This document shows positions 5,080 through 42,739 of a stretch of DNA of 64,000 nucleotides, piece by piece. The stretch's first letter is position 1. Each line of letters begins with the position of its first letter. Below the pieces are notes generated by a model. That model did not search any database, was not told the origin of the DNA, and saw only the letters and a program-made list of their open reading frames with translations. The position numbers and the translations under genes were made by a program. The stretch is from Bacillota bacterium (lineage in GTDB: Bacteria; Bacillota; Clostridia; Oscillospirales; Acutalibacteraceae), in assembly GCA_021769885.1 (NCBI GenBank), contig JAETSA010000001.1, positions 39,963 to 103,962 on the forward strand, in the 5' to 3' direction.

Positions 5080-7380
5080 ATGGCTACCAATCGAAGCAAA
5101 CAAAATACGCAAAAGCATAAAAAGCCGATGACAAAAAAACGTCGTATTACGATAACGGCGTTGCTTGCACTTGCACTTACGGCAATACTGACCATATCTA
5201 CGGTCGGTATATATGTGCTGTCGTTTATGGTTTCTTACGTAAACGGCGAGCCCCAAGTGAATTTGGAGGAATATAAAGAAAATCAGGACCAAACTACATT
5301 CATTTATGCTTACGACGCAAATAACGAAGTTACGGAGATTGCCCGTCTGCACGGCGAACAAAACCGAATTTGGGTGACCTACCGAGAAAATCCCGATGAG
5401 AGTGTGATTCCGCAGGATCTTGCCAATGCATATATCGCATTGGAGGACAAGCGCTTTTACGACCACAAGGGTGTGGACTGGTTTAGAACCTTATCTGCCG
5501 TTGTAAAAGATAGGGGCAAAACAGGCGGATCTACCTTAACACAACAGTTGATTAAAAACTTGACAGGTGAAAACAAGCGCACTTTAAACCGTAAATTCTA
5601 CGAGATTTTAATGGCGTTGAACCTTGAGAAAAATGTATCCAAGGAAACCGTTTTAGAAGCTTATATGAATACCGTTTATATGAGCCATGGCTGTTACGGC
5701 GTGCAGACGGCGTCCGAAAAGTATTTCGGCAAAAATGTGCAGGATTTGAATTTGGCGGAATGTGCGTCCTTGGCGGCGATTACACAAGCACCGTCCGCGA
5801 ACGACCCGCTTCTGCATCCCGATAAAAACCGTAAACGTCAGATGACCTGCTTAGAGAATATGAAAGAGCAAGGAAAAATTACGCAGGAACAGTACGATGA
5901 AGCTGTGGCGTACGAAATGGTTTTCACGAACAGCGAAAATTATGTGCAGTCTGAGGAGCTTGCTTCTAAACAGGCAAAAAGCGAAAATGCCGTATGGAGC
6001 TATTATGTGGATTATGTGATTCAAAGCGTGCGTGACGATTTGATGAATCAATACGGCTACTCGAAATCTCAAGCGTCTTCTATGATTTATTCGGGCGGAC
6101 TTCGTATTTACTGTGCAGTCGATTTGCGTGTGCAGGAAGCGATGGAATCCGTGTATGTCAACCGTACCTCTTTCCCGAAATACAACAAAAATATTGATGA
6201 CGCGCAGTCTGCAATGACGATTATGGATTACAGCGGACGCATTGTCGGGATGGTTGGCGGCGCAGGGGAAAAGACGCAAAACCGTGGGTTGAACCGTGCG
6301 GCGAACTCACCTCGACAGCCGGGTTCGTCCATTAAGCCGATTTCAATTTATGCGCCTGCCGTAAATGAGAAATACGTTACTTGGAGCAGTATGATTACCA
6401 ACTACGGTATTCCGCATTATTACAGTGACGGCGGTTACGGCCCCGTAAACTACGGCAATGATCCCGGTTCTCCCGATTCCAAGGTCAATGTGCAAAAGGC
6501 AATTTGTAAATCCTACAATACCGTGCCCGCACAGATTTTGAAGAAAATGGGCTTCGAAACAAGTTTTTCATACACAACGCAAAAATTCCATTTGGGTTAT
6601 ATTGTTGATCCGACTGATAAGAATACTTCTTCCTTGGCTGTCGGCGGTACTTATAAGGGTGCAACGACGTTGGAAATGGCATCGGCGTATGCTGCATTTG
6701 GCAACGGCGGTAAGTATTTTGAACCCTACTGCTATTATAAGGTTACCAACAGCAACGGTTCTAAGGTACTGTTACAGCACGAAGAATCAGCAGGTGAGCA
6801 AATCATATCTCCCGAAACCGCTGATATTATGAACGAACTCTTACAAACCGTTGTTACGGATGCGGCAGGACAGGCGACCGCGCGGAATTACGGTCTGAAA
6901 AACTCTGTGTTATTCGCCAAAACAGGTACAACCACAGAAGATAAAGACCGTTGGTTCGTCGGCGGTACACCGTATTATGTTGCGGCGGTTTGGTTCGGTT
7001 GCGATGAACCGAAGCAGATATCCAATTATGTTACCGGCAACCCTTCAGGCGCGATTTTTGATGCGGTTATGAATGCTGTGCACAAAGGCTTGGAATCCAA
7101 ATCGTTTACGAAGTTTTCACCGATTGTCGAGCAGCATGCTTATTGCACTGCGACAGGGCTGTTGGCAAGCGACAGCTGTCCAAGCAAAGCTATGGGGTGG
7201 TACTCTAAAGAAAATTTGCCGGGACGCTGCACTTCCTGCACAGGGGCTGTGCCGGAAGCTCCCGAAGAGCCTGTGGCAACCGAGCCGCAGTCCAGTGCAT
7301 CGCCCGAGCCGACCACTGAGGCTGCAACGAGCAATGCGGGAGAGCCTGCAACAAACGGCGCAACAGATGCAACGCCTTAA
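5080..7380 (+). CDS. Class A penicillin-binding protein (bifunctional glycosyltransferase/transpeptidase, PBP1A-like)
   Basis: N-terminal TM anchor. GT51 motifs EDKRFYDHKGVD and GGSTLTQQL are present. Transpeptidase motifs SSIKP (SxxK) and KTGTT are present. The C-terminal tail is rich in P/E/T/A. Confidence 0.92.
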   Translation: MATNRSKQNTQKHKKPMTKKRRITITALLALALTAILTISTVGIYVLSFMVSYVNGEPQVNLEEYKENQDQTTFIYAYDANNEVTEIARLHGEQNRIWVTYRENPDESVIPQDLANAYIALEDKRFYDHKGVDWFRTLSAVVKDRGKTGGSTLTQQLIKNLTGENKRTLNRKFYEILMALNLEKNVSKETVLEAYMNTVYMSHGCYGVQTASEKYFGKNVQDLNLAECASLAAITQAPSANDPLLHPDKNRKRQMTCLENMKEQGKITQEQYDEAVAYEMVFTNSENYVQSEELASKQAKSENAVWSYYVDYVIQSVRDDLMNQYGYSKSQASSMIYSGGLRIYCAVDLRVQEAMESVYVNRTSFPKYNKNIDDAQSAMTIMDYSGRIVGMVGGAGEKTQNRGLNRAANSPRQPGSSIKPISIYAPAVNEKYVTWSSMITNYGIPHYYSDGGYGPVNYGNDPGSPDSKVNVQKAICKSYNTVPAQILKKMGFETSFSYTTQKFHLGYIVDPTDKNTSSLAVGGTYKGATTLEMASAYAAFGNGGKYFEPYCYYKVTNSNGSKVLLQHEESAGEQIISPETADIMNELLQTVVTDAAGQATARNYGLKNSVLFAKTGTTTEDKDRWFVGGTPYYVAAVWFGCDEPKQISNYVTGNPSGAIFDAVMNAVHKGLESKSFTKFSPIVEQHAYCTATGLLASDSCPSKAMGWYSKENLPGRCTSCTGAVPEAPEEPVATEPQSSASPEPTTEAATSNAGEPATNGATDATP

Positions 7381-7389
7381 GGAGATGCT

Positions 7390-8685
7390 ATGGCCGATAT
7401 ACTGTTTACCAATGCACGGGTGATTGACCCGTCACAAAATGTCGATTGTGTGTGCGATATGCTTTGCAAGAACGGAAAAATCGCACAGATGGACAAAAAT
7501 ATTATTTGCGAGGGTGCACAACAAATTGATGCTTCGGGGCTGATTTTAGCCCCGGGGCTCATTGACATTCATACCCATTTGCGTGACCCCGGCTTCACAC
7601 AGAAAGAAGATATCCTGACAGGCTGTGCGGCAGCGGCGGCAGGCGGCGTAACGACCCTATGTGCGATGCCCAATACAAATCCGACTTGTGATACGCCCGA
7701 AACCATCCAATATATTTTAGAAAAAGCAAAAGGCGCAAAAGCGCGTGTATTGCCTGTGGCTGCAATCACAAAAGGCTTGCAGGGGGAAGTCCTCTCTGAT
7801 ATGGAAGCCCTGGCGGCGGCGGGCGCGTGTGCATTTTCGGATGACGGTGTTCCGGTCGCGACAGCGGATTTGATGCGCCGAGCTATGGAAAAGGCGGCAG
7901 AATTGCATTTGCCGATTTTAGCACATACGGAGGATAAATCTCTTTCGGTCAAAGGGATTATGAATCAGTGCGCACTTGCCGACAAGCTTTCGGCGGCAGG
8001 CATCCCGAACAGCGCGGAGGATGTCGGAACGGCGCGTGAAATCGCACTGTTGATGAGTGCGCCGAAGGATACGCATTTACACATTTGTCACGTGAGCACG
8101 GCAGGGAGTGCCGCATTGATTGCCGATGCCAAAAAGCGCGGCTTAGCTATCACGGCGGAAACTTGTCCGCACTATTTTATGTTTACAGATGAAAAACTGG
8201 CGGCGCAGGATGCAGATTACCGTATGAATCCGCCATTGCGTTCCGAATGTGACCGAAAGGCAATCTTTGAGGCGGTATTGAACGGCACGTTGGATGCAAT
8301 TGCAACTGACCACGCACCGCACACCGCCGCAGAAAAGAGTGATTTTTACAGAGCACCGAACGGTGTAATCGGTATGGAAACTTCCTTTGCCGCAAGCTAT
8401 ACCGCCCTTGTCAAGAGCGGTGCAATGACCGTTTCGGAGCTTTTGCGCAGAATGTCCTGTGCGCCCGCGCAGATTTTGGGCATCGACGCAGGTACACTTC
8501 GCATCGGTGCACGTGCCGATTTGATTTTGATTGATGAAAATGCGTCGTGGACAGTTGATGTGCACGCATTGCATGGCAAATCCAAAAATTGCGTGTTTAA
8601 AAACTGCACATTGCAATCTAAGGTGAAAATGACCGTTTTAAACGGTGAAATTGTATATGATGAACTTACAAAGGGGAATGAATAA
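7390..8685 (+). CDS. pyrC: Dihydroorotase
   Basis: Metal-binding motifs DIHTHLRDPG and ATDHAPH. 431 aa. Starts 9 nt after the PBP stop codon, behind GGAG. Confidence 0.9.
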   Translation: MADILFTNARVIDPSQNVDCVCDMLCKNGKIAQMDKNIICEGAQQIDASGLILAPGLIDIHTHLRDPGFTQKEDILTGCAAAAAGGVTTLCAMPNTNPTCDTPETIQYILEKAKGAKARVLPVAAITKGLQGEVLSDMEALAAAGACAFSDDGVPVATADLMRRAMEKAAELHLPILAHTEDKSLSVKGIMNQCALADKLSAAGIPNSAEDVGTAREIALLMSAPKDTHLHICHVSTAGSAALIADAKKRGLAITAETCPHYFMFTDEKLAAQDADYRMNPPLRSECDRKAIFEAVLNGTLDAIATDHAPHTAAEKSDFYRAPNGVIGMETSFAASYTALVKSGAMTVSELLRRMSCAPAQILGIDAGTLRIGARADLILIDENASWTVDVHALHGKSKNCVFKNCTLQSKVKMTVLNGEIVYDELTKGNE

Positions 8686-8686
8686 A

Positions 8687-9604
8687 ATGGGCTTTGACAG
8701 ACTTTGCGAGGCAATTCTCGAAAAAAAGAATCCGACAGTAGCGGGTTTAGACCCGAAGCTTGCTTTCGTGCCGAATTTTATTAAAGAGGAATCCTTTAAA
8801 AAATTTGGAAACACTTTAGAGGGCGCTGCTGATGCACTTTTGACCTTTAACAAGGGCTTAATCGATGCGCTTTGTGATATTGTACCTGCTGTAAAACCGC
8901 AGTGCGCGTATTATGAAATGTACGGCTGGCAAGGCGTAAAAGCATTGCACGATACAATTGCATACGCAAAGGAAAAGGGACTTTTTGTGATTACCGACGG
9001 AAAACGCAACGACATCGGCACAACAATGGAAGCCTATGCGGCGGCACATCTCGGCGAAGTCGAGGTGGACGATGCAGCATTCGCACCGTTCGGCGGGGAT
9101 GCGCTGACTGTGAACGGCTATCTCGGCAGTGACGGCATCCATCCGCTTTTGCCGATCTGCAAGGAAAAGGACAAAGGCATTTTTGTACTTGTGAAGACTT
9201 CGAATCCTTCTTCGGGGGAATTGCAGGATAAAATGATTGCGGAGGAGACTGTTTACAGAACGATGGGCGATATGTGCGAGCAGTGGGGCGAGGACACGCG
9301 CGGTGCGTACGGCTATTCCGCTGTCGGCGCAGTTGTCGGCGCAACCTATCCCGCACAGCTCGGTGAGCTTCGCAAAGCTTTGCCGCACACGCTGTTCTTG
9401 GTTCCCGGTTACGGCGCACAGGGCGGCGGCGCACAGGATGTCGTACCCGCTTTTGATGCACGTGGATTGGGCGCAATTGTCAATTCTTCCCGTGCGATTA
9501 TGTGTGCTTATAAAAAAGGAGATTGGCAAGAGGAAGATTATGCAAAAGCGGCACGTGCGGAAGCAATTCGTATGCGCGATGAAATTGCGGCGGCTTTAAA
9601 ATAA
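8687..9604 (+). CDS. pyrF: Orotidine 5'-phosphate decarboxylase (long, type 2 form)
   Basis: ORF 8645..9604. I prefer the ATG at 8687 (MGFDRL...), directly after the pyrC stop and behind AAGGGGA. Motifs GLDPK, KPQCAYYE and DGKRNDIGTT are present. Confidence 0.85.
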   Translation: MGFDRLCEAILEKKNPTVAGLDPKLAFVPNFIKEESFKKFGNTLEGAADALLTFNKGLIDALCDIVPAVKPQCAYYEMYGWQGVKALHDTIAYAKEKGLFVITDGKRNDIGTTMEAYAAAHLGEVEVDDAAFAPFGGDALTVNGYLGSDGIHPLLPICKEKDKGIFVLVKTSNPSSGELQDKMIAEETVYRTMGDMCEQWGEDTRGAYGYSAVGAVVGATYPAQLGELRKALPHTLFLVPGYGAQGGGAQDVVPAFDARGLGAIVNSSRAIMCAYKKGDWQEEDYAKAARAEAIRMRDEIAAALK

Positions 9605-9623
9605 GAAAAAGGAGCAAATCCTT

Positions 9624-10703
9624 ATGGCGGAACATATGAAGAAAGCATATTTGCTGTTAGAGGACGGCACGGTTTTTGTTGGAAATTCGATGGGCAAAGT
9701 CGGCACGGCGATTGGTGAGGTCGTGTTTAATACCTGCACAGCTTCCTATGAAGAATTGTTGGCAGACCCGACTTATTACGGTCAAATCGTTGCGCAAACC
9801 TATCCGTTGGTCGGCAACCGCGGTGTAGCAGGTGAAAACCGTGACTCGGATATAATGTCAAACGGCTATATTGTGCGCGAATGGTGTAAAGTTCCCGCAG
9901 GCGGTGTTTCTCTGCATGAATATCTTCTCGGGCGCGGGATTGTCGGTCTGAGTGGGATTGACACACGGCGCTTGACGCGTATTTTGCGGGATAAAGGCTA
10001 TATGAAAGGCGCGATTACCGATTCGTTGGAAAATCAAGCGGATTTGCTTCGCGAAATCCGTGCATACACGATTTCGGGTGCGGTAGAAGCGGTTACTGTG
10101 AAAGCACCGCAGCATCTGTCGGCTGAAAACGAGAAATACAGAGTTGCTGTATTGGATTACGGCTTTCCGCGAAAAATTTTAGAAGCCTTGCTTTCCCGAG
10201 GCTGTTCTGTAGATATTTTTCCTGCCTCTTATACGGCAGAGCAAGTGGCGGCAGGAAAGCCGGACGGAATCTTCTTGTCGGACGGACCTGCTGACCCCGA
10301 TGACAATCCTGTTTTTATTCAAAATATTGCAGAAATTGTGAAATTAGGCGTGCCCGTATTTGCTGTCGGGCTTGGACATCAGATGTTAGCCCTGGCAAAG
10401 CAGGCGGAAATTGTAAAAATGCCGCAGGGGCATCGCGGTTCGAATCAGCCTGTTTTGGTTTTGGAATCTGAAACACTGATGGTGACAGAGCAGAATCACG
10501 GCTACACAGTAAATCAAGAGAGCTTTCCGGCGAATGTGGCGGAAGTTTCTATGATTAATATCAATGACGGCTCTGTGGAAGGTCTTTATTATCCGTCCGT
10601 TCCTGCGCTCAGTGTGCAGTTTACGCCCGACGGCAATCCTGACAGCAGTACCTCGTGGATATTTGACCGTTTTGTTGAAATGTTAGGGGAGGCGCACGTA
10701 TGA
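9624..10703 (+). CDS. carA: Carbamoyl-phosphate synthase small (glutaminase) subunit homolog with its catalytic triad replaced
   Basis: Clear CarA fold signature: GEVVFNT, YPLVGN, GIDTRRLTR, GHRGSNQPV, QNHGY. At the nucleophile motif FGICLGHQ this protein reads FAVGLGHQ, with Gly at 10368..10370. At VQYHPE it reads VQFTPD (10614..10631). Confidence 0.85.
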   Translation: MAEHMKKAYLLLEDGTVFVGNSMGKVGTAIGEVVFNTCTASYEELLADPTYYGQIVAQTYPLVGNRGVAGENRDSDIMSNGYIVREWCKVPAGGVSLHEYLLGRGIVGLSGIDTRRLTRILRDKGYMKGAITDSLENQADLLREIRAYTISGAVEAVTVKAPQHLSAENEKYRVAVLDYGFPRKILEALLSRGCSVDIFPASYTAEQVAAGKPDGIFLSDGPADPDDNPVFIQNIAEIVKLGVPVFAVGLGHQMLALAKQAEIVKMPQGHRGSNQPVLVLESETLMVTEQNHGYTVNQESFPANVAEVSMININDGSVEGLYYPSVPALSVQFTPDGNPDSSTSWIFDRFVEMLGEAHV

Positions 10704-13696
10704 AACAGCAGTTTAGGAAGATTTTAGTGGTCGGCGCAGGCCCTGTTGTGATCGGTCAGTCTGCGGAATACGATTATGCAGGTACGCAGATGTGCCGCGT
10801 ATTAAAGCAGGAGGGTATAGAAGTTGTTTCCGTAAACTCCAATCCGACAACCGTAATGACTGACCGCCGCTTAGCGGATTCCGTATATATTGAGCCGTTA
10901 AACAGTGAAACAATCAAAAAAATCATTGAAACGGAAAAGCCTGACGCAGTGCTTGCAACGGCGGGCGGTAAAACAGGCTTGGAAATTTGTTTGGAGCTTG
11001 CGCAAAACGGCTACTTGGAAGAGCATCACGCAGTTTTACTCGGCGCACAGCCTGAGGTAATCAAAAGCGTTCGCAACGAGCAGGCACTGCAAACGATGCT
11101 GCAAGCGGCAAAGGAACCGTATTTGCCGAGTGCTATTGTCAGTTCCGAAACCGAGACCTTGCAGTTCGCAGAAGCGGTTGGGTATCCTGTTTCCTGTAAA
11201 TCTGCATTTTCGGCAGAAGGCGGTGCTTTCATACGTTGCGATACAGAGGAAGCTTTGATTGCCTGCTTTACACAAAGCGTGCAAAAATCCCTTGTCGGGC
11301 AAGCTATGCTGACGAAATGCGTAGAGGGCTATAAAGAAATTGAATTTGCCTGCATTCGCGATACAGACGGTAACTGCATCAGTGTTTGCAGTACAGAAAA
11401 TATTGACGCGGTCGGCGTACACACAGGAGACAGCATTGCTGTCCTGCCTGCGCAGACTTTAACAGATTCCGAAACTGCGATGCTGCGCCGCGCGGCACGA
11501 AAAATTGCCCGCCATTTGAAAATTGAAGGTGTATGCTTAGTTCGATTTGCGCTCCATCCGGATTCGGGCGAATACTTTGTTTTGGGTGCTGAACCGCAGC
11601 TGAACCGTACAACGGCACTGATTTCCAAAGTAACAGGCTATCCGATTGCGGCAGTTTGCGCAAAAATTGCACTCGGATACCGTCTGTATGAAATTGCAAA
11701 CGAAATCACAGGCAAAACAACGGCGGCAAACGAGCCCGCAATCGACTATTGTGCGGTGAAAATCCCGAAATGGTCATTTGAAAATTTTGACGATGCTACC
11801 CGTAAACTCGACGAAACTATGAAAGCAACCGGCGAAGCCTTTGCAATCGGTACGGGGTTTGAATTGGCATTCTTAAAAGCGGTCCGCTCCGTGAATCCGA
11901 AAACCGAGCATATTTCCTTGCCGAAGCTTCGATTGAAATCTGATACGGAAATCAGAGATTTGCTGGCATCTCGGGACAATGAGCGTGTGTTTGTCATTTA
12001 CGAAGCAATTAAGCGCGGATTTTCTTTGCAGGATATTCACGCGCAAACGAGCATTGATATGTTCTTCCTGTCGAAGTTTAGAAATATTGCAGATGCGGAA
12101 CTTTCGCTGTGTGCGGACTTGAATGAAGAAACCTATCTGTATGCGAAATCCATCGGATTCTTGGATTCTGTGATTTTAAAGCTGACCGATAATGAATCTT
12201 TGCATTTTAAGGCGCGTTCCTCATATAATACTGTGGACACCTGCGCCGCAGAATACGACGTGCAGAAACCGTATTTTTATTCTGCGTGGGATGAGGAAAA
12301 TGAAGCGGAGATGTTCTTAAAGGCAAATCCCGCAAAGAAGAAAAAAATCTTAGTGGTCGGCTCGGGTCCCACCTCTGTTGGGCTTGGAACGGATCGCGAT
12401 TATGCGGCATATCAGGCGCTTTATACCTTGCGGGATTTCGGCTATGAAACGGTTATGCTCAACAACAATCCTGCGGCGAACACAACGGATTTTGCCGCAG
12501 CTGACAAGCTGTATGTAGATCCGATTACCGAAGAAGATATCGAGAGCGTTGTGCTGACCGAAAAGCCGGACGGTGCTATTTTGGTGTTCGGCGGCGGCGA
12601 AGCGTTGCGGAAATCCGAGATTTTACGCACAATGGGCGTTACGGTTTACGGCGCGGATGCATCGGTACACAGAGCACTCAAAAACAAAATTGAGTTTTTC
12701 GATATCTTAGATAAACTGAATATCCGCCATACAGGCAGTCGCAAAGTCTTGGTCGGCAAGGGTGTCGAAGTAGATGTACTGACGGACGGTGAAGATTTCT
12801 TAATTCCCGGGATTTGTGAGCATATTGAAAAAGCACAGGTGCACTCAGGGGATTCGATTTCGGTTTATCCGACGGTATCTTTGTCAGATTCCGTTAAACA
12901 GGCGGTCGTGGAATATACCGGGCGTTTGGTGCGTGAATTGGGACTTCGCGGACTTTTGAATATTCAATTTGTCGTGTATGACAACGAAGTTTATGTCACA
13001 AGCGCAAGCGCAGTGGCAACACGGAATATTCCCTTTATGACGAAAGCTTCTGCTTTGCCGATTGTGGAATTTGCTACGCGCCTAATGCTCGGCGAGTCCA
13101 TTCGGGATATCGGTGTCGGTACAGGACTTTACAAGGAATCCAATCGGTATTTTGTTCGTGTTCCAGTGTTTAGTTTTGAACAGCTGGAGGGTACGGATGT
13201 CCGACTCGGCGCGGAAATGAAATCTACCGGCGAGGTTATGGGCGTGGCTGACAATTTTGCAGAGGCACTGCTCAAGGGGTTCATCGCTTCGGGTATGCGT
13301 ATGAAACGCACAGGCGGCGTGCTGATTTCCGTTGCGGATTCCGATAAACAAGCTGCCGTGCCGCTCGGCGATGCATTCCTAAATCAGAATTTCAAGGTTT
13401 ATGCAACCTCAAATACGGCAAAATTACTGAATGCAAATCATGTCGCGGCAAATGCGGTCCGTAAAATTCACGAGGGAGAGCCGAATACGTTGACGCTGAT
13501 TTTGAAAAATCGCTTGTCTTATTTGGTATCTACTGCACAAAGCGGACCAAAAACGAACTCAGACGATGTGCGCATCCGCCGTACGGCACTTTTGCGTCGC
13601 ATTCCGGTTTTACCGTCCGTAGAAACAGCTGTAGCACTGTCAAAATGTTTGGCAGAAAACGATACGGTTGAAGAAATTCGTGTGCAAAAATTATAA
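10700..13696 (+). CDS. carB: Carbamoyl-phosphate synthase large subunit homolog, shortened, with degenerate ATP-grasp active sites
   Basis: 998 aa and collinear with CarB: GAGPVVIGQSAEYDYAGTQ, GVHTGDSI, MKATGE, EMKSTGEVMG, and an MGS-like C-terminus. EMNPRVSRSS reads GAEPQLNRTT (11585..11611). EVNPR(A/S)(A/S)RT reads TSASAVATRN (12995..13024). The Gly-rich loop reads AEGGAFI. The second RPSYVLGGR subdomain is missing near 12727..12775. The 4 nt start/stop overlap with carA is ATGA. Confidence 0.85.
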   Translation: MKQQFRKILVVGAGPVVIGQSAEYDYAGTQMCRVLKQEGIEVVSVNSNPTTVMTDRRLADSVYIEPLNSETIKKIIETEKPDAVLATAGGKTGLEICLELAQNGYLEEHHAVLLGAQPEVIKSVRNEQALQTMLQAAKEPYLPSAIVSSETETLQFAEAVGYPVSCKSAFSAEGGAFIRCDTEEALIACFTQSVQKSLVGQAMLTKCVEGYKEIEFACIRDTDGNCISVCSTENIDAVGVHTGDSIAVLPAQTLTDSETAMLRRAARKIARHLKIEGVCLVRFALHPDSGEYFVLGAEPQLNRTTALISKVTGYPIAAVCAKIALGYRLYEIANEITGKTTAANEPAIDYCAVKIPKWSFENFDDATRKLDETMKATGEAFAIGTGFELAFLKAVRSVNPKTEHISLPKLRLKSDTEIRDLLASRDNERVFVIYEAIKRGFSLQDIHAQTSIDMFFLSKFRNIADAELSLCADLNEETYLYAKSIGFLDSVILKLTDNESLHFKARSSYNTVDTCAAEYDVQKPYFYSAWDEENEAEMFLKANPAKKKKILVVGSGPTSVGLGTDRDYAAYQALYTLRDFGYETVMLNNNPAANTTDFAAADKLYVDPITEEDIESVVLTEKPDGAILVFGGGEALRKSEILRTMGVTVYGADASVHRALKNKIEFFDILDKLNIRHTGSRKVLVGKGVEVDVLTDGEDFLIPGICEHIEKAQVHSGDSISVYPTVSLSDSVKQAVVEYTGRLVRELGLRGLLNIQFVVYDNEVYVTSASAVATRNIPFMTKASALPIVEFATRLMLGESIRDIGVGTGLYKESNRYFVRVPVFSFEQLEGTDVRLGAEMKSTGEVMGVADNFAEALLKGFIASGMRMKRTGGVLISVADSDKQAAVPLGDAFLNQNFKVYATSNTAKLLNANHVAANAVRKIHEGEPNTLTLILKNRLSYLVSTAQSGPKTNSDDVRIRRTALLRRIPVLPSVETAVALSKCLAENDTVEEIRVQKL

Positions 13697-13728
13697 TACT
13701 GTGCATAAATTCATAAGAAAGGAACGGT

Positions 13729-14532
13729 ATGGATAATAGGTATCCATATCGTAAGGGCTTTTTGATGTTTCAATCCGAATACAAAATTCAATCGATAACG
13801 CAACTGAATCCGACAACCTACAGCTTGGTTTTGGAGTGCGCCGAATTGGCTGCCGAAAGTTGGTGCGGTCGATTTGTAAATATTCGTTGCGGTGAAAAAC
13901 CTTTACGCAGACCGATTTCAATTAGTGAAATTGATAAAGAGAACGGCACGATTACCTTAGTGTTTGAGGTGCGCGGAGAGGGTACAGAGTGGCTTTCTAC
14001 ACGCAGAGCGGGAGAAAAATTGGACGTTTTGGGCCCGCTTGGCAACGGATTTTTCCCGGATTCGGCAAAACGCGCAATTTTTATCGGCGGCGGTATCGGT
14101 TGCCCGCCTATGCTCGGTGCGGCGCAGGAGTACGGTGAGAATGCAGAAGCGATTTTAGGTTTTCGTTCCGCTGCGCAAATTATTTTGTTAGATAAATTCA
14201 AAGCCTGCTGTCAATCGGTAGACGTGACCACGAATGACGGTTCTTTCGGTGTAAGGGGCTTTGTCACTGATGTTTTAGCGGACAAGCTTTCCGAGAATAA
14301 AGATTGCGTAGTGTATGCCTGCGGTCCGATGCCGATGCTCAAAGGCGTCGCACAAATGTGTGCACAAAATGACGTGCAGTGCTTTGTTTCTTTGGAACAG
14401 CGTATGGGCTGCGGCGTCGGGGCGTGCTTGGTTTGCGCGTGCAAAACACACGAGGCAGACGGCGAGCATATGCGCCATGTTTGCAAAAACGGTCCTGTGT
14501 TTGATGCAAAGGAGGTCGATTTCGGTGGCTGA
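13729..14532 (+). CDS. pyrK: Dihydroorotate dehydrogenase (class 1B) electron-transfer subunit
   Basis: FAD/NAD-binding ferredoxin-reductase-like fold plus a C-terminal 2Fe-2S motif, CGVGACLVCACK. Lies directly upstream of pyrD. Confidence 0.85.
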   Translation: MDNRYPYRKGFLMFQSEYKIQSITQLNPTTYSLVLECAELAAESWCGRFVNIRCGEKPLRRPISISEIDKENGTITLVFEVRGEGTEWLSTRRAGEKLDVLGPLGNGFFPDSAKRAIFIGGGIGCPPMLGAAQEYGENAEAILGFRSAAQIILLDKFKACCQSVDVTTNDGSFGVRGFVTDVLADKLSENKDCVVYACGPMPMLKGVAQMCAQNDVQCFVSLEQRMGCGVGACLVCACKTHEADGEHMRHVCKNGPVFDAKEVDFGG

Positions 14533-15436
14533 TTTAAGGGTGAATATTGCAGGTGTTGCATTTAAAAATCCTGTGATTACCGCGAGCGGTACATTTGGGT
14601 TCGGACAGGAGTATGCCAGGCTTTACGACATTTCAAAGCTTGGCGGAATTTCCTGCAAAGGCACGACTTTAGAACCGCGTATGGGTAATCTGTCGCCGCG
14701 CATAGCCGAAACACCGTCAGGCATTCTCAACAGTGTCGGATTGCAAAATCCGGGTGTAGAAGGCTTTTTAAAAAACGATTTACCTCTTCTTGAAAATACA
14801 GATACAGTGGTTATTGCCAATATTGCAGGCAGTCAAATAGAGGATTACATCGAAACCGTGCGCCGTTTGCAGGGCTCGTCTGTAGATATGATTGAAATGA
14901 ATATTTCGTGCCCGAACGTCAAAGAAGGCGGCGTTTCCTTCGGTACATCGCCTGAGAGCGTGGAGCGTATTACGAAGCAGGTTAAAGCCGTGGCTGAACA
15001 GCCTTTAATCGTTAAGCTAACACCGAATGTCACGGACATTGCCGAGATTGCCGCGGCTGCAGAAGCCGGCGGTGCAGACGCAATTTCCTTAATCAATACG
15101 CTGACTGGCATGAAAATCGATATTGAAACCCGCCGCCCGTTGCTGAAAAATAACACAGGCGGTATGTCGGGTGCGGCGGTATTCCCTGTGGCGCTGCGTA
15201 TGGTTTGGCAGGCGGCAAACCGCGTGCAGATTCCTGTAATCGGCTTGGGTGGCATCACAAAATGGCAGGACGCAGTCGAAATGCTTTTGGCAGGTGCTAC
15301 CGCAGTGCAAATCGGTACGGCGAATTTTACCGATGCCTACACGCCGCTTAAGGTGATTGAAGGCTTGGACGCCTATTTGGACGCACACGGCGAAAAATCC
15401 GTGATGGATATCGTCGGCAAGGTGCAGGTATGGTAA
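14525..15436 (+). CDS. pyrD: Dihydroorotate dehydrogenase (class 1B) catalytic subunit
   Basis: The ORF track extends this frame back to 14315, inside pyrK. The homologous N-terminus (LRVNIAGVAFKNPVITASGTFG) starts at GTG 14525, behind AAGGAGG (14508..14514). The active-site motif NISCPN is present. Confidence 0.88.
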   Translation: MADLRVNIAGVAFKNPVITASGTFGFGQEYARLYDISKLGGISCKGTTLEPRMGNLSPRIAETPSGILNSVGLQNPGVEGFLKNDLPLLENTDTVVIANIAGSQIEDYIETVRRLQGSSVDMIEMNISCPNVKEGGVSFGTSPESVERITKQVKAVAEQPLIVKLTPNVTDIAEIAAAAEAGGADAISLINTLTGMKIDIETRRPLLKNNTGGMSGAAVFPVALRMVWQAANRVQIPVIGLGGITKWQDAVEMLLAGATAVQIGTANFTDAYTPLKVIEGLDAYLDAHGEKSVMDIVGKVQVW

Positions 15437-15843
15437 TTTTATCTGTAGATTACGGGGATGCTCGAACGGGAATCGCCGTTTGCGATAAGCTCGAATTGAT
15501 GGCCTCTCCCGTGACGGTGATTCACGAGCGCGAAAATGACCGTCTGGTGGCATGCATTGCAGAAATTGCGAAAGAAAAGCGTGCGGAGAAAATCGTCTTG
15601 GGACTTCCGAAAAATATGGACGGCTCTGAAGGCTTTCGCGCTGAAGCCTGCCGGGCTTTTGGCGCAGCACTCTCAGAAGCTGCAAATCTGCCTGTGGATT
15701 TTCAAGATGAGCGCTTAACAACCGTTTCTGCGCACCAAATGCTGAATGCTACGGATACACGCGGCAAAAAGCGAAAGGAGCTTGTGGATGCGGTGTCCGC
15801 TGTGATTATCTTAGAAGATTATTTGCGCAAAATGAAAAATTAA
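15430..15843 (+). CDS. ruvX: Holliday-junction resolvase-like / pre-16S rRNA nuclease YqgF (RuvX)
   Basis: 137 aa. The N-terminus ILSVDYGDARTGIAVCD is typical of YqgF. It overlaps the pyrD stop codon (ATGGTAA). Confidence 0.85.
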   Translation: MVILSVDYGDARTGIAVCDKLELMASPVTVIHERENDRLVACIAEIAKEKRAEKIVLGLPKNMDGSEGFRAEACRAFGAALSEAANLPVDFQDERLTTVSAHQMLNATDTRGKKRKELVDAVSAVIILEDYLRKMKN

Positions 15844-19470: not shown

Positions 19471-20901
19471 ATGAAATACGATGTAGTGGTGATCGGTGCA
19501 GGCGTTGTTGGCGCACTGATTACCCGAGAGCTTTCCAAGCTCAATGTCCGTGTGGCTATGGCTGACAAGTTTAACGACGTTGCCATGGGCACAACCAAAG
19601 CCAACAGCGCGATTGTGCACGGTGGCTTTGATGCGGCAAACGGCACTTTGAAAGCAAAGCTGAACGTTCGCGGCACTGAGCTGATGCCGCAGATTTGCAA
19701 GGCGCTTTCTGTACCGTATCGCAACAACGGTTCCTTGGTTTTGGCATTTTCCGAGAAAGAAATGGAGCACGTCCATACGCTTTATGCGCGCGGCGTGAAA
19801 AACGGTGTTCCCCGTCTTTCTGTTGTGGACAAGGAAACCGTTTTGAAAATGGAACCGCATGTGAGCGAAGAGGTGGTCGGGGCGTTGCTTTCTGAATCCG
19901 CTGGTATCGTTTGCCCGTACGAATTGACGATTGCGGCGGCGGAGAATGCAGTTACAAACGGCGCGGAATTTTTGCGTAACTGTGAAGTGCAGGCAATCCG
20001 CGAAGAAAACGGAGAGTTCGTTTTAGAAACCTCTCTCGGCGAAATCACAGCACAATATGTTGTCAATGCCGCAGGCATTCACTCCGATGATATCGCGCGT
20101 ATGATTGGGGATGATTCCATTTCTTTGGTCGCGCGCAAAGGCGAGTATTATCTTTTGGATAAGTCCTTCGGCTATATGGCGGATCACACAATTTTCCAAT
20201 GCCCCAATGAGATGGGTAAGGGCGTTTTGGTTACACCGACTGTAGATGGCAACTTACTGATTGGACCTTCTGCGTTGGATGTGGATGACAAAGAAGATGT
20301 CGATACTACACCCGAGGGCTTGGAGTTTATTGTAGAAAAGGCGAAAAAATCTGTACCGACCTTGAATGTGCGCGGCGCGATTACTTCCTTTGCAGGAATG
20401 CGTGCACATCCCGTCACGGATGATTTCATTATTGCATTTTCCGAAAAGAATGACCGCTTCTTGAATGTGGCAGGTATTGAATCTCCCGGTCTTTCGGCGG
20501 CACCTGCAATCGCAGAAATGGTTGCGGGTATGTTCAAAGAAAAAGCAGAGCTTACCGAAAAATCCGAATATACAGAAACACGCGAAGCACCCGTTCGTTT
20601 CCGTCATATGACGAAGTCGGAGCGCGAAGCCTTAATCGCGAAAAATAAAGCATACGGCAGAATCATTTGCCGTTGTGAAACTATCACTGAGGGCGAAATC
20701 GTGGATGCGATTCACGCGCCCGCAGGCGCACGCGATGTAGACGGTGTTAAGCGCCGCACACGCGCGGGTATGGGCAGATGCCAAGGCGGATTTTGCGGTT
20801 CGAAAGTGGTTGAGATTCTCGCACGTGAACTGAATGTTCCGATGAATGAAATTACAAAATTCGGCGGCGAATCGAAAATTCTGTTTGAGAAAACAAAGTG
20901 A
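19471..20901 (+). CDS. FAD-dependent glycerol-3-phosphate dehydrogenase-like oxidoreductase (GlpA-like) with a BFD-like [2Fe-2S] domain
   Basis: N-terminal Rossmann motif DVVVIGAGVVGA. The C-terminal region CRCETITEGEIVDAI....GMGRCQGGFC is a BFD-like Cys motif. Confidence 0.8.
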   Translation: MKYDVVVIGAGVVGALITRELSKLNVRVAMADKFNDVAMGTTKANSAIVHGGFDAANGTLKAKLNVRGTELMPQICKALSVPYRNNGSLVLAFSEKEMEHVHTLYARGVKNGVPRLSVVDKETVLKMEPHVSEEVVGALLSESAGIVCPYELTIAAAENAVTNGAEFLRNCEVQAIREENGEFVLETSLGEITAQYVVNAAGIHSDDIARMIGDDSISLVARKGEYYLLDKSFGYMADHTIFQCPNEMGKGVLVTPTVDGNLLIGPSALDVDDKEDVDTTPEGLEFIVEKAKKSVPTLNVRGAITSFAGMRAHPVTDDFIIAFSEKNDRFLNVAGIESPGLSAAPAIAEMVAGMFKEKAELTEKSEYTETREAPVRFRHMTKSEREALIAKNKAYGRIICRCETITEGEIVDAIHAPAGARDVDGVKRRTRAGMGRCQGGFCGSKVVEILARELNVPMNEITKFGGESKILFEKTK

Positions 20902-20912
20902 GGTGTGAAGAA

Positions 20913-22169
20913 ATGCTGAATTATGATTTGGTCGTGGTCGGCGGCGGCCCTGCGGGTATGGCGGCGGCGTTGCAGGCACACGAAGAAGGTATTGAAAAAA
21001 TCATTATCTTAGAGCGTGCGGACACGCTCGGCGGTATCTTAGAGCAGTGTATTCACACGGGCTTCGGTCTGCACTATTTCGGCGAGGAGCTTTCGGGTCC
21101 CGAATATGCGGGCAGATTTATTGAACAGGTTTACAATACAGATATTGACGTAAAAGTCGATACGATGGTATTGGATATTTCTGCGGACAATGTGGTTACG
21201 GCTGTAAATAATTTTGACGGGCTTTTGACCATTCAGGCAAAGGCAATCGTATTGGCTATGGGTTGCCGTGAGCGTCCGAGAGGTGCACTGTCCATCGCGG
21301 GCAGCCGTGCAGCGGGCATTATGACCGCAGGCACAGCACAGAAATACGTGAATATGGACGGCTATATGCCGGGCAAAACGGTCGTTATTTTAGGTTCGGG
21401 CGATATCGGTCTGATTATGGCGCGCCGTATGACCTTAGAGGGCGCAAAGGTGAAAGCCGTTTGCGAGCTGATGCCGTATTCGGGCGGTCTGACCCGTAAT
21501 ATCGTTCAGTGCTTGGAGGATTTCGGTATTCCGTTGCGTCTTTCCTGCACGGTTGTGGCAACACACGGTAAAGAGCGCTTAGAAGGTGTTACGGTTGCAA
21601 ATGTTGACGAGCATCTGAAGCCGATTCCCGGTACGGAAGAATATATCCCGTGTGATACCTTGATGCTTTCTGTCGGCTTGATTCCCGAAAATGAGCTTTC
21701 TAAGAATGCGGGTATCACATTAGACCCCGTGACCAACGGTCCTGTGGTCGATGAATACCGCGAAACTACGCATAAAGGCGTGTTTGCCTGCGGTAACGTT
21801 CTGCAAGTACACGATTTGGTGGACTTCGTAACTGAAGAAAGCAAGCTTGCAGGATCAGGTGCGGCAAAGTTTATCAAAGGCGAAAAAGCGGAAGACGGTG
21901 TGGTACATACCAAAGGCGAAAACGGTGTGCGCTATATCGTTCCGCAGAACATCAGCCGTGCAACGGACAAGGATGTAAAGCTGTATTTCCGTGTTGGGCG
22001 CGTGCTTGAAAATGTTACATTAACCGTCACTTGCGGTGATGAGGTTCTGCTTTCTAAGAAAAAACGGAAAATGACGCCCGGTGAAATGGAATATGTCACT
22101 TTAAAAGCGGAAGTTGTAAAACAGCTGCCGGTAGACAGCACAATCGTCGTCAGCACGAAGGAGGCGTAA
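20913..22169 (+). CDS. NAD(P)/FAD-dependent pyridine-nucleotide-disulfide-type oxidoreductase (second subunit of the glp trio)
   Basis: Two dinucleotide-binding motifs, DLVVVGGGPAGMAAA and VVILGSGDIGLIMA. The ATG at 20913 sits behind GAGGTG. Confidence 0.75.
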   Translation: MLNYDLVVVGGGPAGMAAALQAHEEGIEKIIILERADTLGGILEQCIHTGFGLHYFGEELSGPEYAGRFIEQVYNTDIDVKVDTMVLDISADNVVTAVNNFDGLLTIQAKAIVLAMGCRERPRGALSIAGSRAAGIMTAGTAQKYVNMDGYMPGKTVVILGSGDIGLIMARRMTLEGAKVKAVCELMPYSGGLTRNIVQCLEDFGIPLRLSCTVVATHGKERLEGVTVANVDEHLKPIPGTEEYIPCDTLMLSVGLIPENELSKNAGITLDPVTNGPVVDEYRETTHKGVFACGNVLQVHDLVDFVTEESKLAGSGAAKFIKGEKAEDGVVHTKGENGVRYIVPQNISRATDKDVKLYFRVGRVLENVTLTVTCGDEVLLSKKKRKMTPGEMEYVTLKAEVVKQLPVDSTIVVSTKEA

Positions 22170-37961: not shown

Positions 37962-38063
37962 TGTCCATAGACTTGAACCCAATGCAGAAAAATGTACAAA
38001 TCGGTGCCTTTTTACATATTCGCAGTTCAGGTTTATTTTAATTTTTGCTCGTGGGGAAATGAA

Positions 38064-38645
38064 ATGAAACTGTTGGAAGAGCGGATTCAAAAGGACGGCA
38101 TTGTTAAAGCGGGTAACGTTTTGAAGGTCGATTCTTTTTTGAATCATCAAATGGATATAGCGCTGTTCAATGCAATGGGCGAAGAGTTTAAACGCCTGTT
38201 TGCGAATGCGGACGTTAATAAGATTATGACAATCGAGGCGTCGGGCATCGGGATTGCTTGTGTAGCGGCGCAGTATTTCAATGTGCCCGTTGTATTTGCC
38301 AAAAAATCGCAAAGCGTGAATATTGACGGTGATGTGTATTCGACCGAAATTGAGTCTTTTACGCATAAGCGCGTGTATAATGTAATCGTTTCCAAAAAGT
38401 ATTTGTCCCCAAATGACAGGGTCTTGATTATTGATGACTTTCTGGCGAACGGGTGTGCAATGAACGGGCTTTTAGACATCGTAGCTGCGGCAGGCGCGTC
38501 GGTTGCAGGCATCGGTATTGCAATTGAAAAAGGCTTTCAACAAGGCGGTGCATTGCTTCGGGCGCGCGGCTATCATTTGGAATCCCTCGCTATTGTAGAC
38601 GCTATGAATGCTCAAACGGGCGAAATTACATTCCGTGCGCAGTGA
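38064..38645 (+). CDS. xpt: Xanthine phosphoribosyltransferase
   Basis: [13 protein letters not shown]....[13 protein letters not shown] is the classic Xpt N-terminus. The PRPP motif [11 protein letters not shown] is present. The ATG at 38064 lies within track ORF 37992..38645. Confidence 0.9.
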
Positions 38646-38710
38646 GTTTTTTTGTATGATTCGGCAATTCCTGCCGTTCATAATATTTTATTTTTTTAGG
38701 AGGAAATGTC

Positions 38711-39955
38711 ATGAAAAAAGTTCTCAGCATTTTATTGGCTCTTGTTATGGTCGTGCTTTGCTTCGCGGCTTGCGGCAAGAAAGATGATGCAAAAACGGAC
38801 GAGCCTAAGAGCGATTTCTTAGTCGGTGCAGTTTACATCAACAGCCAAAACGACACTGCAGGCTACACGTTTGCGCATCACAACGGCATCACCAAGGCAA
38901 TGGAGCAACTCGGTCTTCCGAAGGAAAACCTCAGAATTGTGGATAACATCCCGGAAGATACTCAGCAGGTTTCCGAAGCAATTGATAAATTAGCCAATCA
39001 AGGCTGTAAAATCATTTTCGGCATCAGCTTCGGTTATATCGAGGCTTTTGCAGAAGCGGCGGAGAAGCCTGAATATGCAGATATCATCTTCTCCCATGCA
39101 ACAGGCTATAAGTCTAACGACAAAAACTTCAACAATTACTTCGGCAGAATCTATCAGGCACGTTACCTCGCAGGTATTGCCGCAGGTCTGAAATCCCTTG
39201 AGCTTGGCAATAACAACCTCGGTTATGTTGCGGCTTGGGGCACGGAATATGCGGAAACCTGCTCCGGCATCAACGCATTCGCAATGGGCGCACAGGCTGT
39301 AAACCCCAATGCGGTTGTTCACGTAAATAAAATCAGCACTTGGGGCGATGAAGCAAAAGAAAAAGCAGCGGCAGAAGCGCTTATCAGCACTTACAAATGC
39401 TGTGTGATTGCCCAGCATTGCGACAGTGCGCAGCCTCAGCTTGCGGCGGCGGACGGTAAGGTATTCGGCTGTGGTTACAACTCTGATATGACCGCGCAAG
39501 CTCCGTCTGCACACTTGACCGCGCCGATTTGGCATTGGGATGTTTACTACAAGCTTGCAATTGAAACGGCTATGAACGATCCGGCAAACTTTATGAGTAC
39601 GGTCGGCATTTACTACGGCGGCTTGAAAGAGGGCTTTGTAGATATTTCTCCGCTTTCCGAAAACTGCACTGCAGAAACCAAAGCGATTGTTGATAAGGTT
39701 AAGGCTATGATGGTCAACGGCGAATGGGATGTTTTCACAAATGAAAAGCTTTCCATCGCGAAAGACGGTACAATCACCAAGACCACTGCCGCACTGAAAG
39801 ACAACAAAGGTGCAGAAGTCATTTCGGCAGATGGTAATACCTATTTCACCTATAACGACGGTGTTCTTACCGCAGTTGACGGCGGCAAAGATGCTTGTGA
39901 CGGTGTTATTAAGGGCTCTATGAACTACTATGTTGCAGGCGTTGAAGAGGGCTAA
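38711..39955 (+). CDS. BMP-family (PnrA/Med-like) nucleoside-binding lipoprotein of an ABC transporter
   Basis: Lipobox LCFAAC with Cys after the signal peptide. Overall similarity to basic membrane protein family substrate-binding proteins. Lies directly upstream of the cognate ATPase and two permeases. Confidence 0.8.
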   Translation: MKKVLSILLALVMVVLCFAACGKKDDAKTDEPKSDFLVGAVYINSQNDTAGYTFAHHNGITKAMEQLGLPKENLRIVDNIPEDTQQVSEAIDKLANQGCKIIFGISFGYIEAFAEAAEKPEYADIIFSHATGYKSNDKNFNNYFGRIYQARYLAGIAAGLKSLELGNNNLGYVAAWGTEYAETCSGINAFAMGAQAVNPNAVVHVNKISTWGDEAKEKAAAEALISTYKCCVIAQHCDSAQPQLAAADGKVFGCGYNSDMTAQAPSAHLTAPIWHWDVYYKLAIETAMNDPANFMSTVGIYYGGLKEGFVDISPLSENCTAETKAIVDKVKAMMVNGEWDVFTNEKLSIAKDGTITKTTAALKDNKGAEVISADGNTYFTYNDGVLTAVDGGKDACDGVIKGSMNYYVAGVEEG

Positions 39956-40001
39956 ACGGATTATTAATCGTTTTTAAAATTCAAATTAAGGGAGATTTAT
40001 T

Positions 40002-41606: not shown

Positions 41607-42739
41607 ACAAAACAAAAGCTCCGTTTATTCGCGTTGTAAAACGGGATAAAATTCATCCTCTTTTAAAAGTAGCCTTTTATTTGATTGCTATCTTGGCGGC
41701 GTTGACTGTTGGCGGTGTTTTGCTGATTTCTATCGGCGTCAATCCGTTTGTGCTTTATAAGGATATGTTTACCATCGGTATGCTTGGCAGCCGATTTGCT
41801 TATAAGAGTATTGAGGGACTGATTACGGTGTTTGTACCGCTGTTAATCACTTCACTCGCCCTGTCTCTGTCTTTTAAAATGCGATTTTGGAATATCGGCG
41901 GTGAAGGACAGTTTATCATCGGTGCTTTAGCGGCGGCAACTGTCGCGCTGAAGTTTGGCGATTCGATGTCCTCTTTTCCGCTGTTGTTGCTTATGTTTGT
42001 ATCAGCAATGCTTGCGGCAGGTGTATTCGGTGGATTTGTTGCGCTTTTAAACGTTCGGTTTAAAACCAATGAAACGCTGATGACGCTGATGCTCAATTAT
42101 ATTGCTTTGTATTTATTGCGGTTTTTCGGTGAGACGCAAGCACCTTGGAATTTCTATTTGAGTGATGAGTCTGTGCGCCCTGTATTCCGCAAATTTTCAG
42201 AGGCGGCGTTTATGCCGACCATTACAATCGGCAAATTTTCTTTGAATATCTCATTGCTGTTTGCAGTGGCGATTTGTGTCGGCGTATATTTCTATTTAAA
42301 GAAGACCAAACACGGCTATGAGATTTCTGTTGTCGGGGACAGCGCAAATACGGCACGATATGCCGGTATGAATGTCAAAAAAATTATTCTTAGAACGATG
42401 TTCCTTTCTGCGGCACTGATTGGGCTTGCCGGCGGATTCTATGTATCCGGTGCAAAGGTGCTCTCGACTTCTATCACAAACAATGTCGGTTGGACGGGTA
42501 TCATTGTAGCTTGGCTTTCCAAGCTGAATACCTTTGCGATTTTCGGTGTATCTCTGTTAATTAGTATTATGCAGTACGGTGCACAGGCGGCAAGCACGCA
42601 ATTTCCGAGCATTGATTCGAATTTTGCGGATTTGTTGCAAGGCATCATCTTGTTCTTTGTTTTAGCGGCAGATTTCTTCATACGTTTTAAATTGGTGTTT
42701 CGGAAGTCGGCAGAGAAGCAAGGAGGGGAAGCAGAATGA
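41603..42739 (+). CDS. ABC transporter permease (BMP/nucleoside-type)
   Basis: Polytopic 378 aa protein with a 4 nt overlap with the ATPase gene. Confidence 0.8.
   Translation: MNKTKAPFIRVVKRDKIHPLLKVAFYLIAILAALTVGGVLLISIGVNPFVLYKDMFTIGMLGSRFAYKSIEGLITVFVPLLITSLALSLSFKMRFWNIGGEGQFIIGALAAATVALKFGDSMSSFPLLLLMFVSAMLAAGVFGGFVALLNVRFKTNETLMTLMLNYIALYLLRFFGETQAPWNFYLSDESVRPVFRKFSEAAFMPTITIGKFSLNISLLFAVAICVGVYFYLKKTKHGYEISVVGDSANTARYAGMNVKKIILRTMFLSAALIGLAGGFYVSGAKVLSTSITNNVGWTGIIVAWLSKLNTFAIFGVSLLISIMQYGAQAASTQFPSIDSNFADLLQGIILFFVLAADFFIRFKLVFRKSAEKQGGEAE

Follow-up and report, generated by a model that had tools for sequence, protein, structure and literature searches.

A carbamoyl-phosphate synthetase homolog of uncultured gut Clostridia that lacks catalytic residues in both subunits and is retained under purifying selection

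Why would a pyrimidine locus keep, intact, a glutaminase subunit from which the catalytic triad is gone? The question is raised by a 64,000-nucleotide stretch of contig JAETSA010000001.1 from a Bacillota bacterium of the Acutalibacteraceae (hereafter the window, meaning the whole stretch analysed). Here an open reading frame (ORF) of 359 amino acids (aa) with an ATG start encodes a homolog of CarA, the small subunit of carbamoyl-phosphate synthetase (CPS), without the Cys-His-Glu glutaminase triad. We refer to this gene (9624..10703; + strand, as are all features of the locus described below) as carA' and to the adjoining large-subunit homolog as carB'. A preliminary description of the window had noted the missing triad and proposed that CarA' is retained in a non-catalytic role, with a working CarB partner implied. 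We find that CarB' lacks catalytic residues at both of its ATP-grasp sites and that both genes are under purifying selection, and we regard it as probable that CarA'B' is a pseudoenzyme complex, derived from CPS, that serves in regulation or as a scaffold by a mechanism we specify only loosely.

The CarA' and CarB' sequences

Profile and alignment searches bear out the assignment of CarA' to the CPS small subunits. Pfam recognizes both the N-terminal, CarB-contacting CPSase_sm_chain domain (PF00988, 130.5 bits; residues 10-131, 9651..10016) and the class-I glutamine amidotransferase-like domain (PF00117, 109.2 bits; residues 176-352, 10149..10679). The protein passes TIGR01368 (325 bits against a cut-off of 307) and aligns over residues 5-355 with E. 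coli CarA chains at an E value of ~5e-72. The amidotransferase-like domain retains its fold without the triad, with a predicted local distance difference test score (pLDDT) mostly of 80-95 in the AlphaFold model. A Shine-Dalgarno-like AGGAG, read from the sequence, lies 9 nt 5' of the ATG (9610..9614), and the complete ORF ends in an ATGA in which the carA' stop TGA and the carB' start ATG overlap (10700..10703), in keeping with the earlier view of an intact, translationally coupled gene.

All three triad residues are replaced, at exactly the coordinates given in the preliminary description. The nucleophile motif of E. coli CarA, PVFGICLGHQ, reads PVFAVGLGHQ in CarA', and SFQGHPEASPG reads SVQFTPDGNPD, both aligned with high posterior probability. 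Alignments place Gly249 (GGG, 10368..10370) in the column of the nucleophile Cys269 and Thr334-Pro-Asp336 (10623..10631) against His353-Pro-Glu355, with Thr334 encoded by ACG (10623-10625) and Asp336 by GAC (10629-10631). In a MAFFT alignment of 150 cluster representatives, 60 canonical sequences carry C, H and E in the three columns that hold Gly249, Thr334 and Asp336 in CarA'. Two flanking motifs, GHRGSNQPV (10428-10454) and QNHGY (10491-10505), are found as described. Two substitutions separate the Gly249 codon from either Cys codon, the identical 359-aa protein occurs in 115 blocks of the assembly collection (from runs that include SRR19621105, SRR13008607, SRR22319400, SRR12338493 and SRR29185118), and all 120 of the closest database homologs (55-99% identity) have Gly in the Cys column and no His in the His column.

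One segment of CarA' stands apart from the triad. Residues 37-79 (9732-9860; NTCTASY...DPTYYGQIVAQTYPLVGNRG) form its most conserved motif block and, in the AlphaFold model of CarA' alone, are the sole long stretch to fall under a pLDDT of 50. Judging from this model, they are probably ordered only against CarB'.

The working partner implied by the preliminary description is not what carB' encodes. CarB' (998 aa; 10700..13696) contains every CarB Pfam domain, with the lid subdomain of its second half deleted, and its AlphaFold model (pLDDT 84.7, predicted template modelling score 0.88) matches E. coli CarB (1c30_A / 1jdb_B) with a template modelling (TM) score of 0.91 at ~35% identity. It scores 967 bits against NF003671, above the cut-off of 599, and 952 bits against TIGR01369, below the cut-off of 1027. 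Its alignment with E. coli CarB falls into two pieces separated by a gap.

Both ATP-grasp sites are degenerate. Relative to E. coli CarB, the first carries R129E, R169K, G175E, Q285R, E299G, N301E and R303Q. Here SCKSAFSAEGGAF stands instead of IIRPSFTMGGSGGG (11192..11230), a segment that includes R169K and an eroded glycine-rich phosphate loop (GGSGGG to AEG-GAF), and the metal and phosphate ligands (11537..11611) read LVRFAL (Q285R) and FVLGAEPQLNRT (E299G, N301E, R303Q), with R306 kept. At the second site, a deletion of ~61 residues, whose junction lies at 12719..12778, has removed the lid (the B subdomain, about 694-760 in E. coli, including R715 and the glycine loop), and the ligand segment (12992..13027) reads YVTSASAVATRN (E841S, N843S, R845V), with Q829 and R848 kept. 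Neither site thus retains its set of ligands, and the catalytic positions changed here are invariant in E. coli and in six intact Clostridial CarBs. Structures by Thoden, Holden and colleagues are said to show Q285/E299/N301 and Q829/E841/N843 holding the metal-nucleotide in E. coli CarB, and mutagenesis by Stapleton and colleagues and by Javid-Majd and colleagues (1996) reportedly found that single conservative changes at these ligands abolish carbamoyl phosphate synthesis. From its sequence and predicted structure, CarB' would keep the CPS fold but not the chemistry, and it looks enzymatically dead. The proposal that CarA' is kept for something besides glutamine hydrolysis therefore stands, but with the catalytic residues and lid of CarB' lost, the non-catalytic role must be widened to the whole heterodimer.

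Distribution, gene order and selection

We scanned one genome per species with the family-specific peptides GEVVFNTC and DPTYYGQI, which gave 511 stretches with relatives of the query; the locus counts that follow refer to the best 80 of these 511. All 80 are from uncultured gut metagenome-assembled genomes (MAGs), labelled Candidatus Fimenecus, Fimivicinus, Onthovicinus, Eubacterium sp. CAG:180, Acutalibacteraceae or Oscillospiraceae. The carA' ORF is complete in every one, at identities down to ~50%, and carB' is uninterrupted except at contig ends and at one locus (L050), where the only ORF called, close to the end of the contig, is of 147 aa. All 80 loci have the two genes side by side, with a short overlap or near-abutment in nearly all. 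Gly at position 269 and the lack of His353 (E. coli numbering) are likewise shared by 80 of 80, and CarB' is degenerate in all except two, L031 and L064.

These loci, together with a related lineage, fall into three architectures. In the first (a), that of the window and of relatives with a CarB' of 996-1000 aa, the order is PBP1A-pyrC-pyrF-carA'-carB'-pyrK-pyrD-ruvX; it is also found with lid-bearing CarB' forms of 1048-1056 aa, which are still dead at E841/N843. In the second (b), present in ~32 of the 80 species and associated with a CarB' of 984-989 aa, pyrC, pyrF, pyrK and pyrD are gone and the order is PBP1A-carA'-carB'-ruvX-spoIIGA-sigE. This arrangement reflects two separate flanking deletions, one of pyrC-pyrF and one of pyrK-pyrD, both of which the pair survived. 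The third (c), which turned up through a PyrF search (120 matches listed, all of at least 75% identity), is pyrC-pyrF-pyrK-pyrD-ruvX without carAB. It belongs to an abundant related lineage (L091-L093; for example L091, 8547-14753), with a HisPhos gene between pyrD and ruvX and a gap of 19 nt between pyrF and pyrK. The CarA'B' pair is thus shown to be genetically separable from the pyr genes. The earlier placement of carA' in a pyr operon holds for the window, where the gene lies between pyrF (8687..9604) and carB', but that context is not needed for retention of the pair.

Selection on the pair matches in strength that on its neighbors. Between the window and L007/L006, where synonymous divergence (dS) is saturated (>1) and ratios of nonsynonymous to synonymous divergence (dN/dS) are approximate, dN/dS is 0.07 for carA' (0.07-0.12 against orthologs), 0.04 for carB', 0.05-0.06 for PBP1A, 0.07 for pyrC, 0.05-0.06 for pyrF and 0.02-0.04 for pyrD. 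Within architecture (b), at an unsaturated dS of 0.6-0.85, the corresponding values are 0.07-0.08 for carA', 0.06 for carB' and 0.055-0.08 for PBP1A. These values place carA' and carB' under purifying selection matching that on neighboring essential genes, and this selection persists after the neighboring pyr genes have been lost. CarA'B' thus combines two marks of a pseudoenzyme, loss of catalytic residues and continued purifying selection.

In a neighbor-joining tree of CarA and CarB, a quick distance tree with E. coli as its sole outgroup, L031 and L064 are basal to the whole degenerate clade. We provisionally read the order of losses as the triad, then the synthetase sites, then either the pyr genes or the pair, depending on the branch.

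Constraint on the pair and its possible roles

If catalysis is gone, what is selection preserving? The old catalytic positions of CarB' vary by subgroup, with E, A, T, P, S or R at 129, G, S, D, A, E or K at 299, and S, K, H, E, T, A, D, G, N or R at 841. We compared relative identity per domain among pairs of similar overall divergence, in the dead clade and in only seven intact CarBs. The allosteric domain stands at 1.02 in the dead clade versus 0.62 in the intact CarBs and the oligomerisation domain at 0.93 versus 0.76, whereas the second-site A subdomain stands at 0.83 versus 1.17 and the two lids at 0.72 and 0.55 versus 0.87 and 0.92. CarA' shows a parallel pattern, with a mean pairwise identity across its clade of 0.67 in the N-domain versus 0.51 in the GATase-like domain, the reverse of canonical CarA (0.41 versus 0.48). 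These comparisons indicate that constraint has moved from the catalytic subdomains to the CarA N-domain, the central part of the first half of CarB, and the oligomerisation and allosteric domains.

The allosteric, MGS-like domain of CarB' (13325..13591) keeps the residues of the pocket for uridine and inosine monophosphate (UMP/IMP): S948 and K954 (ISVADSDK), T974 and T977 (YATSNTA), and K993 and H995 (VRKIHEG), as well as RIRR. Across the clade, S948, K954, T974, T977 and T1016 are invariant or nearly so, with K993 and H995 kept in the window type. In E. coli CPS, S948, T977 and K993 are key to UMP/IMP effects, and the allosteric domains form dimers and the oligomerisation domains tetramers (PMC6245113).

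The pyr-less subgroup (L029, L051 and the other loci with a CarB' of 984-989 aa) has a five-residue segment missing from this domain. In the window the segment is RKIHE (13460-13474), and it carries the equivalents of K993 and H995.

The present state appears to have been reached in steps. CarA of this lineage lost its Cys-His-Glu triad, a state common in uncultured Clostridia that have an intact CarB and a synthetase presumably fed with ammonia. In a clade comprising Fimenecus, Fimivicinus and CAG-180 (gut Oscillospiraceae-like organisms), CarB then lost its Mg-ATP ligands at both ATP-grasp sites and, in most members, the second-site lid as well. The pair has stayed intact, coupled and under purifying selection, even where the flanking pyrimidine genes vanished, and constraint has shifted to subunit contact, oligomerisation and the allosteric domain, with the UMP/IMP pocket preserved in the subgroup of the window. 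CarA'B' may now use the old allosteric pocket to sense a phosphorylated nucleotide and the old oligomerisation surfaces to act on another protein, with an active CPS paralog or aspartate transcarbamoylase (ATCase) as candidate targets. It is this pattern of constraint that leads us to favor a ligand-sensing regulatory or scaffolding pseudoenzyme. A more specific version, in which CarA'B' is a dedicated non-catalytic sensor or regulator of ~150 kDa that binds a nucleotide or other metabolite through the allosteric pocket and perhaps the ATP and glutamine pockets and controls another protein through the oligomerisation surfaces, we put forward only tentatively.

Known systems offer partial parallels. 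Like E. coli CarA/CarB (PDB 1jdb, 1a9x, 1c30), CarA'B' has a two-gene arrangement and the CPSase_sm_chain and GATase domains, and CarB' shares with E. coli CarB the two ATP-grasp halves, the oligomerisation domain, the MGS-like allosteric domain and the UMP/IMP pocket residues. Unlike E. coli CPS, it lacks the triad, E299/N301/R303, E841/N843/R845 and the second-site lid. The closest precedent in the same pathway, by analogy, is the pDHO of Pseudomonas ATCase: in Pseudomonas aeruginosa this inactive dihydroorotase (DHOase) homolog, pDHO or PyrC', is needed for ATCase assembly and activity (PMC7053772), and fungal Ura2 also carries an inactive DHOase-like domain (PMC7053772; PMC6022934). Both pDHO/PyrC' and CarA'B' are conserved pyrimidine-pathway homologs without catalysis that are encoded with pyr genes. 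CarA'B' differs in its fold and pathway step, in that a whole two-subunit enzyme of ~150 kDa is dead, and in persisting where the neighboring pyr genes are gone.

Several considerations weigh against a regulatory or scaffolding pseudoenzyme. The role is reached by exclusion, and selection on CarB' is as strong as on an enzyme, unusually tight for a scaffold, which leaves room for an unrecognised activity. The seven intact CarBs used to detect the shift in constraint are phylogenetically broader than the dead clade. The pyr-less type is without K993 and H995, so a UMP/IMP-type pocket cannot be universal in the family. That a second CPS, a carbamate kinase or pyrB exists in the same organism is an assumption. 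Finally, the view that single substitutions at E299, N301, R303, E841, N843 and R845 cost CPS its activity is drawn from what E. coli mutagenesis is reported to show.

The tightness of selection on the pair, equal to that on bona fide enzymes, is what first commends a neofunctionalised enzyme, in which the CPS scaffold would carry a different activity at a remodelled or new site. The first site lends this some substance: E215, D238, G241, H243 and R306 are invariant or nearly so in CarB', and the subgroup of 984-989 aa retains R129, R169, Q285, R303 and R306. A comparison of conserved residues between the dead clade and intact CarBs revealed no new catalytic constellation, however; near-invariant residues specific to the dead clade number four in CarB' (S359, R820, R867, N937) and zero in CarA'. 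The old catalytic positions vary between subgroups, and the ATP-grasp lids are the least conserved part of one half and deleted from the other. We consider such an enzyme unlikely.

CarA in other Clostridia often resembles CarA' in lacking the triad. Among the 150 best or nearest representatives of 50%-identity CarA clusters, the C-H-E triad is present in 60 and absent in about 90 (~60%), most of which have Gly at the nucleophile position. Sequence comparison thus indicates that triad-less CarA is widespread in uncultured Clostridia and not special to the gene of the window. In six lineages a triad-less CarA accompanies a fully intact CarB: L031 and L064, from the genome scan, and L086, L088, L089 and L090, looked up individually. 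Their CarBs keep R129, R169, G175, G176, E215, H243, Q285, E299, N301, R303 and R306 in the first half and R715, G721, G722, E761, H788, Q829, E841, N843, R845 and R848 in the second. In L090, carAB stands within an argC-argJ-argB-argD-argF-carA-carB operon. Such pairs are presumably synthetases that use free ammonia, with a small subunit that is structural only. Rubino, Lusty and colleagues, and Mullins, Raushel and colleagues, are said to have found that E. coli C269G and C269S lose glutamine-dependent activity and keep the NH3-dependent one. Vertebrate CPS I (PDB 5dou) and the triad-less Clostridial pairs resemble CarA' in an amidotransferase part without a nucleophile, and CarA' shares its sequence neighborhood with the triad-less CarA of all six lineages.

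L031 and L064 are the closest relatives with an intact CarB (1063 aa). Their carA (~9980-11095) and carB (~11070-14279) occupy the same syntenic pyr locus and the CarA nucleophile position is Gly, which makes these pairs, by sequence, candidate natural ammonia-dependent bacterial CPSs. In L086 (9083-13129), L089 (9071-13114) and L090 (9037-13077), CarB is fused at its C terminus to DapF (PF01678), giving proteins of 1346-1348 aa in which all CarB catalytic residues are present and the partner CarA is triad-less; the fusion locus of L086 adjoins a type III glutamine synthetase.

The triad-less set also bears on a candidate role that the intactness of GLGHQ and QNHGY in CarA' suggests, that of a glutamine-binding sensor. 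In 85 representatives without the triad, S47, N240, Q273 and H353 are relaxed, and G241, G271, H272, Q310, H312, Q351 and P354 are kept. Given this relaxation, the intactness of the flanking motifs mostly reflects fold conservation; the kept residues look structural and the candidate is weakened. Gly at the nucleophile elbow is the relaxed state as expected and counts against it too, although Q273 is invariant in the clade of the window, where this leaves some room for it.

A further alternative is that CarA'B' is a working ammonia-dependent CPS, with CarA' as a structural subunit and CarB' making carbamoyl phosphate from free NH3 for the pyr operon. This is the natural reading of triad-less CarA in general, and the pair of the window occupies the classical place, flanked by pyrF and pyrK and near intact pyrC, pyrD and pyrF. 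The full reaction is within reach of isolated CPS halves and of a 41-kDa archaeal CPS (PMC6022934), but this route is closed to CarB', neither half of which is intact: Q285, E299, N301 and R303 are missing from the first site, and the R715 lid, E841, N843 and R845 from the second. Ammonia-type CPSs have both synthetase sites intact and the window pair has both destroyed, so the label fits its relatives only. The catalytic positions differ by subgroup, as released constraint predicts, and the pair is kept without pyr genes just as pyr genes are kept without the pair. On balance, we give a working synthetase at this locus still less credence than an altered enzyme.

It would be a much greater surprise if the pair were a decaying relic, functionless pseudogenes held by operon position. 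Both proteins have lost catalytic residues and a related lineage has no carAB at the locus, but full-length ORFs across 80 species loci, dN/dS of 0.04-0.08, survival through two separate flanking deletions and a confidently predicted CPS-like fold all contradict decay. That the triad codons are products of sequencing or assembly error, a possibility the preliminary description had allowed for, is ruled out for practical purposes by the two-base difference of the GGG codon, the identical protein in 115 blocks from independent runs, and the agreement of 120 homologs and 80 genomes.

Surrounding genes and implications

The pair stands in a pyrimidine locus with the order pyrC-pyrF-carA'-carB'-pyrK-pyrD. 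A PBP1A-family gene (5080..7380) is the conserved upstream synteny anchor and ruvX (15430..15843) the downstream one. Between them lie pyrC (7390-8685), with all DHOase metal ligands present, pyrF (8687-9604; 305 aa, ATG start), pyrK (13729-14532) and pyrD (14525-15436; 303 aa, GTG start, overlapping the pyrK stop). The starts of pyrF and pyrD were reset by homolog lengths and ribosome-binding sites, the mechanical ORF starts having been too long (8645-8687, 14315-14525). In profile scans, pyrF, pyrK and pyrD score as normal enzymes. Rfam detected no PyrR attenuator or riboswitch, its only hits in the window and seven loci being tRNAs, and a promoter and terminator scan did no better than on shuffled sequence. 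The pyr genes seem to be without the usual Firmicute PyrR control. With 9 nt between the PBP1A stop and the pyrC start (7381-7389), they may be co-transcribed with this cell-wall gene.

Where would such a locus obtain carbamoyl phosphate? Pfam and NCBIfam scans of all large ORFs found no second CPS, carbamate kinase, ornithine transcarbamoylase (OTCase) or ATCase in the 64-kb window, and tblastn with argF and intact CarB queries found none in the window or the 80 loci; within 10 kb, none of the 80 has a gene for ATCase or OTCase. The pyrimidine enzymes encoded downstream look functional, so another part of the genome must supply their carbamoyl phosphate, and architecture (c) shows that relatives manage without any CPS at the pyr locus. 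Anabolic carbamate kinase and catabolic transcarbamylases are alternative sources (PMC6022934). In the genome of the window, the source might be another CPS, carbamate kinase or a catabolic transcarbamylase encoded elsewhere.

Other parts of the window hold several features of their own. Two paralogous pairs of a DAO/BFD-[2Fe-2S] oxidoreductase and a Pyr_redox_2 protein (19471-22169, +; 47547-50543, -) resemble anaerobic glycerol-3-phosphate dehydrogenase, and the second adjoins an FGGY sugar kinase (45614-47173) and an FAD-linked oxidase (43866-45617). Two MFS_2 transporter genes (51527-53938, 803 aa; 55265-57796, 843 aa) are about twice the usual length, the Pfam match spanning only the first ~430-470 residues, and a BspA-type leucine-rich-repeat gene (53935-55032) lies between them. 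A xanthine phosphoribosyltransferase gene followed by a Bmp/PnrA-type nucleoside ABC transporter (binding protein, ATPase, two permeases) makes 37992-43731 a purine/nucleoside salvage cluster. In 1692-1807, a promoter-like site close to the consensus (TTGACA, 17 nt, TAAAAT, extended TG) stands ahead of a tRNA gene (1736-1807).

In a 2018 review, bacteria are credited with the glutamine-type CPS II and vertebrate mitochondria with the ammonia-only CPS I (PMC6022934). The full-text literature yielded no report of a bacterial CarA without its triad or of a dead CPS in bacteria, provisionally, as most subscription journals lie outside that coverage. Our comparisons suggest that natural ammonia-type CPS is frequent in uncultured Clostridia. 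Annotation pipelines, including NCBI MAG records, name carA' and carB' as CPS subunits, the cut-offs of NF009475 and NF003671 being passed; in particular, CarB' is still named a CPS large subunit because it passes NF003671. Metabolic reconstructions would accordingly credit common gut bacteria with a carbamoyl-phosphate source that is probably absent at this locus, and would also treat many other Clostridia as glutamine users although their CarA is unable to hydrolyse it.

If CarA'B' is a sensor, the family would extend to several dozen species of uncultured gut Clostridia at least, and possibly hundreds. Independent of adjacent pyrimidine genes, it would add a new family to the metabolic pseudoenzymes of bacteria. 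The lineages described here form a stepwise natural series, from glutamine-type through ammonia-type and half-dead to fully dead but conserved. With reciprocal gene losses separating the complex from the pyrimidine pathway, they offer a good system in which to ask why dead enzyme scaffolds persist.

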